Origin: Octopus sinensis
Lineage: Eukaryota
NCBI RefSeq assembly: GCF_006345805.1
Contig: NW_021824283.1
Span: forward strand, 1 to 19,189
DNA: 19,189 nt
Direction: 5' to 3'
Each line of letters opens with the position of its first letter. Positions within the stretch are counted from its first letter, which is position 1. Below the pieces are notes generated by a model that worked only from the letters and a program-made list of their open reading frames with translations, was not told where the DNA came from and searched no databases. This document shows, in pieces, positions 5,382-19,189 of this stretch. A program made the position numbers and the translations under genes.

Positions 5382-6414
5382 GAAGTGGTGAAACACGACC
5401 TTCGAACATTAGGCCTCAACGAGGCCATGACCAGTGACTGAGAATTTCGGAAATATGCTGTGCTTGAGAAGACCTGGCAAGCCAAGTGAGACCATAATCT
5501 TGTGGCCTATGCCAGGGGTATAGCCAGCCCACTTATACGTACATTCCCTTCATTGGACGCTGCTTGCAAAGACCTGTTGAGGCAAGTGAAATTGGAATCG
5601 AAATCAAATTCGATGACTGGCATCCGTGCTAGTGGAGCATTAAGAGCACCATCCGAGCGTGATCGTTGCCAGAGCAGCTAACTGGTGTTCGTACCGGTGG
5701 CACCTAAAAAGCACCGTTCAAGTGTGATCGTTGCCAGAGCAGCTAACTGGTGTTCGTACCGGTGGCACCTAAAAGGCACCGTTCAAGTGTGATCGTTACC
5801 AGAGCAGCTACTGGTGTTCGTACCGGTGGCCTAAAAGGCACCGTTCAGTGTGATCGTTACAAGAGCAGCTAACTGGTGTTCGTAACCGGTGGCACCTAAA
5901 AGGCACCGTTCAAGTGTGATCGTTACCAGAGCAGCTAACTGGTGTTCGTACCGGTGGCACCTAAAAAGCACCGTTCAAGTGTGATCGTTGCCAGAGCAGC
6001 TAACTGGTGTTCGTACCGGTGGCACCTAAAAGGCACCGTTCAAGTGTGATCGTTACCAGAGCAGCTAACTGGTGTTCGTACCGGTGGCACCTAAAAGGCA
6101 CCGTTCAAGTGTGATCGTTACCAGCGTCGCCTTACTGGCACTTGTGCCGGTGTGCAGGTGACACGTAAAAAAAAAAACACGATTTTCCATGACCGCTGCC
6201 AGTACCGCCTGACTAGCCCTCATGCCGGTGGCACGTAAAAGCACCCACTACACTCTCTGAGTGGTTGGTGTTAGGAAGGGCATCCAGCTGTAGAAACTCT
6301 TCCAAATTAAGATTGGATCCTGGTGCAGCCATCTGGTTTGCCAGTCCTCAGTCAAATCATCCAACCCATGCTAGCATGGAAAGCGGACGTTAAACAACGA
6401 CGATGATGATGATG
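5382..6414 (+). mobile_element. Family B: 5'-truncated RTE-type LINE (ORF end, long 3'UTR, (GAT)n tail)
   Basis: Begins EVVKHDLRTLGLNEAMTSD*EFRKYAVLEKTWQAK*, resembling an RTE C-terminus (V..DL..LG......DR..WR). Ends CCAACCCATGCTAGCATGGAAAGCGGACGTTAAAC plus (GAT)n. Confidence 0.85.
5655..6124 (+). repeat. 65-bp minisatellite, 7 full copies plus a partial copy, inside the family B 3'UTR
   Basis: Unit AAGTGTGATCGTT(G/A)CCAGAGCAGCTAACTGGTGTTCGTACCGGTGGCACCTAAAA(A/G)GCACCGTTC starting at 5655, 5720, 5785, ~5847, 5912, 5977, 6042 and 6107. Confidence 0.97.
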
Positions 6415-13911: not shown

Positions 13912-14532
13912 ATGCGTACCTTTTCCTTCTTGGATACAAACTCTGCTTGCGAAGATCTGTTGAGGCAAGTGAAATCAAAATCAAAGTGAAATTCGATGAC
14001 TGGCACCTGTGCTAGTGGGGTGCAAAGAGCACCATATGAGTGTGATCGTTGACAGAGCGGCTAACCAGCTTCTGTGTCAGTGGCACATAAAAGGCACCAT
14101 TCAAGTGTGATCATTACCAGCATCGCCTTACTGGCACTTGTGCCCCGTGCTAGTAGAATGCCAAGAGCACCAACCGAGCGTGATCGTTGCCAGAGCGGCT
14201 AACTGGCTTCCATGCCAGTGGCATGTAAAAAGCACCATTCGAGTTTGATCGTTACCTGCATCGCCTTACTGGCACCTCTGCCGGTGGCATGTGAAAAAAG
14301 ATTCAAGCGAGGTCATTGCCAATACCGCCTGACTGGCCCATGTGCCGGTGGCATGTAAAAGTACCCACTACATGCTTGGAGTAGTTGGCATTAGAAGGGC
14401 ATCCAGCTGTAGAAAGTCTGCTAGACCAAGATTGGAGCCTGGTGCAGCCATCTGGTTTGCCAGCCTTCAGTCAAACAGTCCAACACATGCTAGCATGGAA
14501 AGCGGACATTAAACGATGATGATGATGATGAT
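13912..14532 (+). mobile_element. Family B (RTE) 3'UTR
   Basis: Collinear with ~5535-6414, has fewer and more diverged internal repeat units, and ends in (GAT)n. Confidence 0.9.
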
Positions 14533-17991: not shown

Positions 17992-18042
17992 ACTGATAAA
18001 ATTTTTAATGATTTTATCCTTTAATTATATATATATATATTT

Positions 18043-18491
18043 ATAGAATGGTTGTATACTGTCAATCTAACACGAACGTGACAGTAGGAGTGTACACCAC
18101 CGCTGTTTAGCCCTAGGAAGCATCGACGCCTCCTGATGGCTTTGACACATTTCTCCTGTGTCCTTATATACATTTACGAAGGGGAGACAAATACCCCCAG
18201 CCGCCAGGGCTGCATCTAGGGACATGTGTTTCAGGATGATTGTCCTTCGTCGGCCTAGACTAGCAGACACTGGTCAGCTGATGATATTTGCCTCGACTTC
18301 ATAATGTATATATCTAAATTTCAGTGAAGTCTATTCACTGATTATCATAATCAGAAATACTAAATTTCTAAATCTTTCATAGAGACATGTACGGTGGTGG
18401 GGCGTTCGTATTAGATTGACAGTATACAACCATTCTATTGCCCCACCACCGTACATGTCTCTATGAGAGATTTAGAAATTTAGTATTTCTG

Positions 18492-18493
<2 letters not shown>
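18043..18493 (-). mobile_element. Candidate retrozyme or Penelope-dependent non-autonomous element: one 361-bp monomer plus a 90-bp inverted junction fragment, inserted in (TA)n
   Basis: 18440-18493 is the reverse complement of 18350-18403, and 18403-18438 is the reverse complement of 18043-18078 (1 mismatch each). The monomer contains a hammerhead motif and is non-coding. Confidence 0.72.
18215..18259 (-). ncRNA. Type I minimal hammerhead ribozyme
   Basis: Minus strand: TCTAGG CCGACGA AGGA-CAATCA-TCCT GAA AC-ACAT-GT C CCTAGA. Helix I is 6 bp, helix II 4 bp, helix III 2 bp with a tetraloop, and the cleavage site is GUC. The only deviation in the conserved boxes is U4C. Confidence 0.8.
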
Positions 18494-18524
<31 letters not shown>

Positions 18525-18564
18525 ATATATATATATATAATATATATATATATATTATATATGT

Positions 18565-18859: not shown

Positions 18860-19189
18860 TAGAAATATTACATTTCTAAATCTCTCAGAGAGAGTGTTGC
18901 AGTAACAGCATGATAAAGTGATGGCTTGTTGCTAACTTAATGTGGCAGTCCCAGGAAAGGGAAGAATGTTACTGTTATTTAGCCCTAAGAAACATCGTTT
19001 CTAGTTGGCTGCACGACACAAGCGTTCTGTGTTCTTAAGTTTTCAAACAGGGGAGAAAAGCATCTCCACCTAACAAAGCCAGCATTCAGAGACAAGTTTC
19101 AGGGTTATTGCTCTCCATTAGTCTGGGGTAGTTTGGCCTTGCTAGATGTCGCTGCTAATCCGCTGTTGAAAACTTATAGGATTTCAGTG
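18860..19189 (-). mobile_element. Diverged second copy of the hammerhead-bearing monomer family, circularly permuted; runs off the window
   Basis: AGAAATATTACATTTCTAAATCTCTCAGAGAGA ~ 18353-18385; TTTAGCCCTAAGAAACATCG ~ 18106-18125; GGGGAGA; terminal ATTTCAGTG ~ 18318-18326. Confidence 0.72.
19087..19125 (-). ncRNA. Degenerate hammerhead at the homologous position in copy 2
   Basis: Minus strand: CAGA CTAATGG AGAGCAATAACCCT GAAAC TT GTC TCTG. Helix I is CAGA/TCTG; the core has two G/A transitions. Confidence 0.6.

Follow-up and report, generated by a model that had tools for sequence, protein, structure and literature searches.

Animal retrozymes without long terminal repeats (non-LTR retrozymes) are non-coding, GC-poor units of 150–450 bp, each carrying one type I hammerhead ribozyme with a short palindromic helix III, and they share their genomes with Penelope-like elements (PLEs); mussel repeats measure 350–390 bp, and axolotl hammerheads are of the dimer type (PMC7229834). 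PLEs carry hammerheads inside their pseudo-LTR (pLTR) repeats and are marked by partial tandems, inverted 5′-truncated pieces, an extension at one end only and microsatellite targets (PMC4209133; 10.1101/2021.04.23.441226; 10.64898/2026.07.22.740005). Among long interspersed nuclear elements (LINEs), Tx1L in Tx1D, Keno in U2 genes and Tx1-Mar in Mariner-N4 are APE-RT elements that occupy one site in a multicopy sequence and insert in tandem around its duplication (PMC4494074). Non-autonomous LINE derivatives with only the first open reading frame (ORF1) include HAL1 (PMC5753468) and TRE5-A.2 of Dictyostelium; the ORF1 protein (ORF1p) of TRE5-A binds TFIIIB and is thought to choose the insertion site (PMC3159450). 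Here, we analysed a 19,189-nt stretch of Octopus sinensis DNA, the whole of contig NW_021824283.1 (hereafter the window), which holds a hammerhead-bearing repeat near its right end. Our reading, to which we assign a probability of roughly 0.7, is that a type I hammerhead lies in a solo 362-nt repeat of a family with C at core position 4 (C4), that the ribozyme probably cleaves slowly and as a dimer and is predicted to be weaker in the window copy, and that the repeat is probably moved by PLEs and is targeted by LINEs.

Several features set this system apart from those already described. Compared to non-LTR retrozymes, the octopus repeats are mostly solo or in one to two units with PLE-type inversions, no long arrays being seen, and they show a family-wide U4C change, sister families with U3-A8 and U3-G8 cores, and a fixed LINE target site. 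Compared to PLEs, the ribozyme is canonical and not minimal, the repeats examined enclosed no RT or GIY-YIG gene, and no alignable partner was found. Relative to Tx1 LINEs, the octopus targets are several divergent ribozyme repeats and one non-ribozyme repeat, linked by their distance from a TATA-like box, and the LINE-repeat composites seem to use the host repeat's pathway of movement. Relative to HAL1 and TRE5-A.2, the site would be a TATA-driven start within a ribozyme transposon and not a position upstream of tRNA genes. The ribozyme by itself is a further mollusc-type retrozyme; what makes the repeat more interesting is the LINE site ahead of it. In searches of an open-access library, which did not extend to Repbase, we found neither hammerhead repeats from octopus nor retrozyme-targeting LINEs described, nor site selection by promoter position at Pol II-type starts.

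A type I hammerhead in a dispersed octopus repeat

An earlier note on the window, made from its letters, had placed, without naming a strand, a minimal type I hammerhead at 18215–18259, with three paired helices, intact GAAA and GUC, and the core CCGACGA. We confirmed the motif as a real feature of the window and found this fold on the minus strand at 18259–18215; the motif extends further, to 18266–18210, through a distal helix I (18266–18263 with 18213–18210) that covaries across families. Helix I has 6 bp (18259–18254 with 18220–18215), helix II has 4 bp and a 6-nt loop followed by GAAA, and the 2-bp helix III is closed in the window copy by the loop ACAT. The triplet is GUC, with a predicted cut between 18221 and 18220. 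Compared with CUGANGA, GAAA and NUH, every position fits apart from U4, where the family has C. Three covarying helices surround the core, and the fold is open at helix I, as in type I. In minimal hammerhead ribozymes (min-HHRs), helix III is absent or nearly so, helix II has 7–8 bp and helix I has 4–5 bp (PMC4209133), dimensions that the octopus motif does not share; its helix sizes, its distal helix I and a constant CAA in loop 2 place it with the canonical metazoan type I of that paper, so that the type stands and the word minimal falls. Of the model and descriptor checks that the note had suggested, a descriptor (helix I ≥6 bp, helix II ≥4 bp, position 4 free; thresholds chosen after the motif was known) gave one match in the window and two in 200 block-shuffled windows. 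The folding energy of the region was ordinary (z = −1.54).

Sister families of the repeat (the window copy belongs to family 1) share this architecture with different letters. Family 2, an older family (1927 first-look candidates in the genome), has the core CUGAUGA and the loop CUAG in copies outside the window, and most of its copies are canonical in the core; family 3 has U3-A8, and families 4 and 5 have U3-G8, with the triplet GUU in family 5. Thus, the core takes four forms among five paralogous families. In 15 natural copies, hand-chosen from these five families, 95.3% of cells were paired in the extended fold compared to 29–48% in slid controls, double changes occurred in 14 of 17 pairs, and all helices covaried. 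The strands of helix III are perfect or near palindromes in every family, with a sequence that differs by family. Four natural core forms on one scaffold in one genome make a ready series for testing the need for catalysis. An unrelated candidate for a canonical type I hammerhead (L085:2286–2350) has a CUGACGA core, a long loop 2 and a palindrome-like loop 3.

A 281-nt query to the 2.72-Gb genome returned 2298 first-look candidates, and the best of the 40 that were scored were 93–96% identical to it. With the core left partly free, CCGACGA was found in 53 and C4 in 61 of 64 exact matches, and a pattern spanning the subfamilies gave 581 exact genomic matches with C4 versus 34 with U4. C4 lies within a CpG, where scattered U4 is the expected product of decay; both tandem copies of L178 have U4. 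At window position 18225, G was present in 79 and A in 4 of 86 aligned copies (overlapping loci partly remaining). In three large sequencing runs from three organisms, the ACGT form made up ~99% of depth, and among the rows listed there was no position-4 change at ≥10%. Therefore, U4C is inherited, and ACAT is the window copy's own change.

These family states divide what the note had claimed about the condition of this copy. The loop ACAT is indeed one CpG-type change from the palindrome ACGT, which is the family loop; U4C, which the note also named, is the family state and does not mark a weakened copy; the defect specific to this copy is ACAT. The predicted helix III duplex of a dimer fell from −10.3 kcal/mol for the family form to −5.2 kcal/mol for the window form, and the lowest-energy cofold was a double hammerhead for two common-family copies and not for two window copies. 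The window copy is thus probably weaker than its family. Conservation of the core relative to its flanks, which the note had asked for, was also found, with divergence of 1.6% in core columns versus 4.6% in the 3′ flank. Covariation points to catalytic activity in the family, and its ribozyme would likely cleave slowly and as a dimer through the palindromic helix III. Numerous dimer-cleaving variants of PLE hammerheads were reportedly described by Lunse, Weinberg and Breaker, with U4C cases possibly among them. The window holds one family 1 ribozyme, with no tandem partner at the locus; a dimer with its second ribozyme, of family 2, was ruled out, this one being decayed and its family's palindrome different. 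Contigs of four runs presumed to be RNA covered the repeat; the drop in their depth upstream of the predicted cut was rejected as a sign of cleavage, because three larger runs, probably of DNA, showed the same drop, which is consistent with 5′ truncation and with the presence of sister families.

LINE insertion ahead of the ribozyme

In many copies of the repeat, the sequence equal to window 18285–18272 is duplicated and stands on both sides of a ~1.6-kb insert, which codes for a CCHC protein and terminates soon past AATAAA. The first 180 residues of this protein are 26–40% identical to ORF1 of intact APE-RT-zf LINEs, and the inserts (ORF1-only elements) share the same kind of 3′ end with these LINEs. 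Target-site duplications of LINE and ORF1-only inserts measure 14–17 nt, and the target site is homologous across at least five families, 12–26 nt upstream of helix I. From the 86 exact matches to the 3′ end of the ORF1-only elements, we drew a sample independently of the ribozyme, namely the 30 that came first in contig order. Twenty of these ends ran straight into a hammerhead repeat of one of five families, nine ran into the duplicated target and then another LINE, and one ran into neither; a sixth hammerhead family also appeared in this analysis. Overall, the target site was used at 29 of 30 ends and 21 of 22 sites. In the control, the first 30 of 20,630 matches to a related tail of generic type, belonging mostly to a short repeat, the count was 0 of 30. 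Target-site duplication, together with a single kind of target in >20% of flanks, the threshold used in PMC4494074, marks these elements as target-specific. Full LINEs of a separate ORF1 lineage occupy the homologous site in family 5 (both junctions in L164, the 3′ junction in L171) and family 4 (L180). The intact LINEs of L144–L154 insert at other targets, and since they lack the ribozyme repeat at their ends, the ribozyme was rejected as the LINE's own 5′ end.

One ORF1-only subclade targets a non-ribozyme repeat (L162, L182 and L183) behind CCAAT and TATAAAA boxes. In seven junctions, with boxes picked by eye, the duplication begins 26–28 nt after a TATA-like box. By established promoter spacing, a start site would lie at about this distance. 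The spacing suggests that the LINE target site is likely the transcription start of the repeat. Insertion of LINEs at a constant spacing behind a TATA-like box in unrelated target sequences would amount to site selection by promoter position. It is also possible, at somewhat less than an even chance, that the LINE endonuclease recognises a loosely defined sequence or structure of the DNA, as happens in other Tx1 families, and that neither promoter proteins nor ORF1p play a part. Target choice in Tx1 elements is set mainly by the endonuclease (PMC4494074), and the repeat families are distantly homologous and may share a weak motif; however, the duplicated sequences diverge widely between families at a constant distance from the TATA-like box, and ORF1 is under purifying selection where ORF2 is lacking.

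The intact LINEs have an ORF2 with APE, RT and a zinc-binding domain and an ORF1 with a CCHC knuckle, as in L1/Tx1-type elements; 2 of 119 homologues bear the name TX1, and the best relative of solved structure is human L1 ORF2p. The ORF1-only elements, with open frames of 444–463 codons in many of 112 matches, have no ORF2 and end ~200 nt past ORF1; with an intact ORF1, a LINE-type 3′ end and many copies, they resemble HAL1. Among 19 stop-free copies (pairs not independent), the median ratio of nonsynonymous to synonymous substitution was 0.11 in the N-terminal part and 0.29–0.33 elsewhere. A homologue search with the ORF1-only protein returned nothing at E 0.001; Atlas gave, as a lead only, CCHC/ZCCHC3-like clusters at 0.90–0.92, the nearest being mostly molluscan. 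A tree of 52 ORF1 rows contained a well-supported main ORF1-only clade (33 rows) and many open forks. A second, separate ORF1-only lineage lies in tandem with intact LINEs in L146, L150, L152 and L154. A short repeat with >20,000 exact matches (L214–L243) has the 22-nt 3′ tail of the LINEs and is probably a short interspersed nuclear element partner.

Composites of LINE and repeat also invite an explanation by one or a few old insertions, copied whole and shuffled by template switching, with no continuing targeting. ORF1 and repeat subfamilies do partly travel together, L079 resembles a template-switch chimera, and the composites in L065, L066, L102 and L104, where truncation or inversion falls within the LINE part and the ends are repeat-like, suggest that LINE and repeat moved as one unit. 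We consider this explanation improbable. Two ORF1 lineages only 26–31% alike (the full LINE in family 5 compared with ORF1-only elements in families 1, 3 and 4) occupy the same relative site, and on the ORF1 tree the target families are interspersed among one another. Tandem arrays at L163 consist of divergent copies with the duplication between them, the letters at LINE-repeat junctions vary, and the non-ribozyme repeat is struck at the same distance from its TATAAAA box. Composites of a LINE gene and a retrozyme would supply retrozymes with coding cargo.

Three further observations concern insertion points. The repeat of L162, L182 and L183 occurs in head-to-head inversions, and no ribozyme was seen in it. 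The two intact LINEs of L144 and L147 have inserted at the same position of another repeat, which lacks a TATA-like box at the usual distance. At window 18207, in runs X4 and X13, a contig passes from the repeat into a 3′ tail of LINE type 13 nt past the predicted cut, and this junction is a second possible LINE insertion point.

Movement of the repeat and a proposed cycle

The repeat is non-coding, of a size within the retrozyme range, has one type I hammerhead per unit, and is tandem with a spacing of 347–363 nt in L067, L068 and L178; the window copy is solo. Its insertions bear PLE marks. An inverted piece was present in 16 of 28 loci and a TA-rich flank in 17, and a 55-nt extension occurred on one side only in 10 and on both sides in none (at the window's right end, missed in the automated end calls, the extension was assigned by inspection). 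Partial tandems, inverted 5′-truncated pieces, one-sided extension and microsatellite targets give these loci the insertion structure of non-autonomous PLEs (10.1101/2021.04.23.441226). The genome also contains intact PLEs with RT and GIY-YIG that show these inversions and TA ends. On this structural likeness, the repeat was likely moved by PLEs, and the Penelope or retrozyme context named in the earlier note holds for a non-coding hammerhead repeat. No RT or GIY-YIG gene lay between repeats in any locus examined; same-strand pairs 2–5 kb apart, opened as candidates for repeats flanking a PLE gene (L061, L062, L164 and L165), held LINE sequence.

Intact PLEs also contain tiny hammerhead-like motifs (L158:6370–6420, L159:6990–7040, and the minus strand of L161 near the 3′ end) with a helix II of 2–3 bp, a CCGG palindrome and a core that reads U3-A8 at two of the loci and A3-U8 at the other. 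On the minus strand of L156 (5278–6762), a 495-codon open frame lies directly upstream of, and overlaps, the PLE RT frame.

In the cycle that we propose, a TATA-type promoter of one unit would drive transcription of the units that follow, pairing of helix III would join two ribozymes, and the paired ribozymes would cut after GUC and release unit-length RNA. PLE reverse transcriptase and endonuclease might then copy this RNA into (TA)n sites, with partial tandem copies and pieces in inverted orientation as the result. L1/Tx1-type LINEs and their ORF1-only derivatives would insert at the putative start, 12–26 nt upstream of helix I, thereby acquiring the promoter of the repeat, and would at times be carried on as part of it.

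Several observations weigh against the reading given at the outset. Rfam gave no hammerhead match at the gathering score, nor with the limit relaxed to E 10. Kinship among the 15 hand-chosen copies inflates the significance of covariation over shuffle controls. In cofolds of longer slices, the double hammerhead was the lowest-energy structure in four of seven family representatives and not in the other three. The repeats had no alignable homology to six PLE loci obtained by one protein search (best E 0.027), their sole likeness being an 11-nt motif; therefore the mover is assigned by kind only. Long multimeric arrays of the retrozyme type were not seen. U4C, a natural variant in a viroid ribozyme, lowers activity in vitro (PMC3088659), and together with the U3-G8 wobble in families 4 and 5 it makes relaxed selection on catalysis possible.

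In an alternative reading, the hammerhead of this family would be a fossil, its fold inherited from an active ancestor, disabled by U4C and spread by PLE machinery without cleavage. This we judge unlikely. Two of the four core forms in sister families are expected to be suboptimal, Naiad PLEs spread without hammerheads (10.1101/2021.04.23.441226), and U4 revertants have not prevailed (34 versus 581). Against this, subfamilies of family 1 changed helix III in length and sequence yet kept it palindromic or nearly so while retaining G5, A6, G8 and GAAA, and the viroid tolerates U4C in vivo (PMC3088659).

A bolder reading, which we regard as doubtful, is that LINE ORF1p finds TATA-driven starts and that these LINEs, by landing directly ahead of the hammerhead, make retrozymes into coding, ribozyme-delimited RNA circles spread by PLEs. 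ORF1-only derivatives would then keep ORF1 because its protein finds these starts, and the attenuated cores (C4 and U3-G8) would be selected because long read-through RNAs then survive. If true, this would be a three-layer parasite of LINE, retrozyme repeat and Penelope enzymes.

Layout of the window

Features of the locus are collected in Table 1. The window is AT-rich and dense in microsatellites and short repeats.

Table 1. Positions of the hammerhead repeat and associated features in the window.
Feature	Position	Strand	Remarks
One 362-nt monomer of the dispersed non-coding repeat	18043..18404	-	Family 1
Full type I hammerhead motif including distal helix I	18210..18266	-	Fold, covariation
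Catalytic core box CCGACGA	18247..18253	-	Position 4 (18252) has C, as does the family
Helix III strand	18222..18229	-	8-nt palindrome in family, broken at 18225 in window copy; predicted cut after 18221
LINE target site	18272..18285	-	Empty in window copy; duplicated on both sides of LINEs in other copies
TATA-like box	18305..18312	-	27 nt before LINE target site; picked by eye, putative promoter
Motif TTRTCTCCCYT	18180..18191	-	Common to 3′ non-coding ends of intact RT and GIY-YIG PLEs in the same genome
Inverted 5′-truncated piece	18403..18493	+	Last 36 nt of monomer and 55-nt end extension; no ribozyme
(TA)n flank at end of inverted piece	18492..18562	.
Shorter TA run, other flank	~18024-18045
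Decayed family 2 copy	18860..19189	-	Cut by contig end; broken hammerhead at ~19128-19085

A short repeat of ~400 nt occurs in at least eight copies across the window. Units of 65 nt and 138 nt, related to each other, form tandem arrays at 5659–6124 and 14009–14282.
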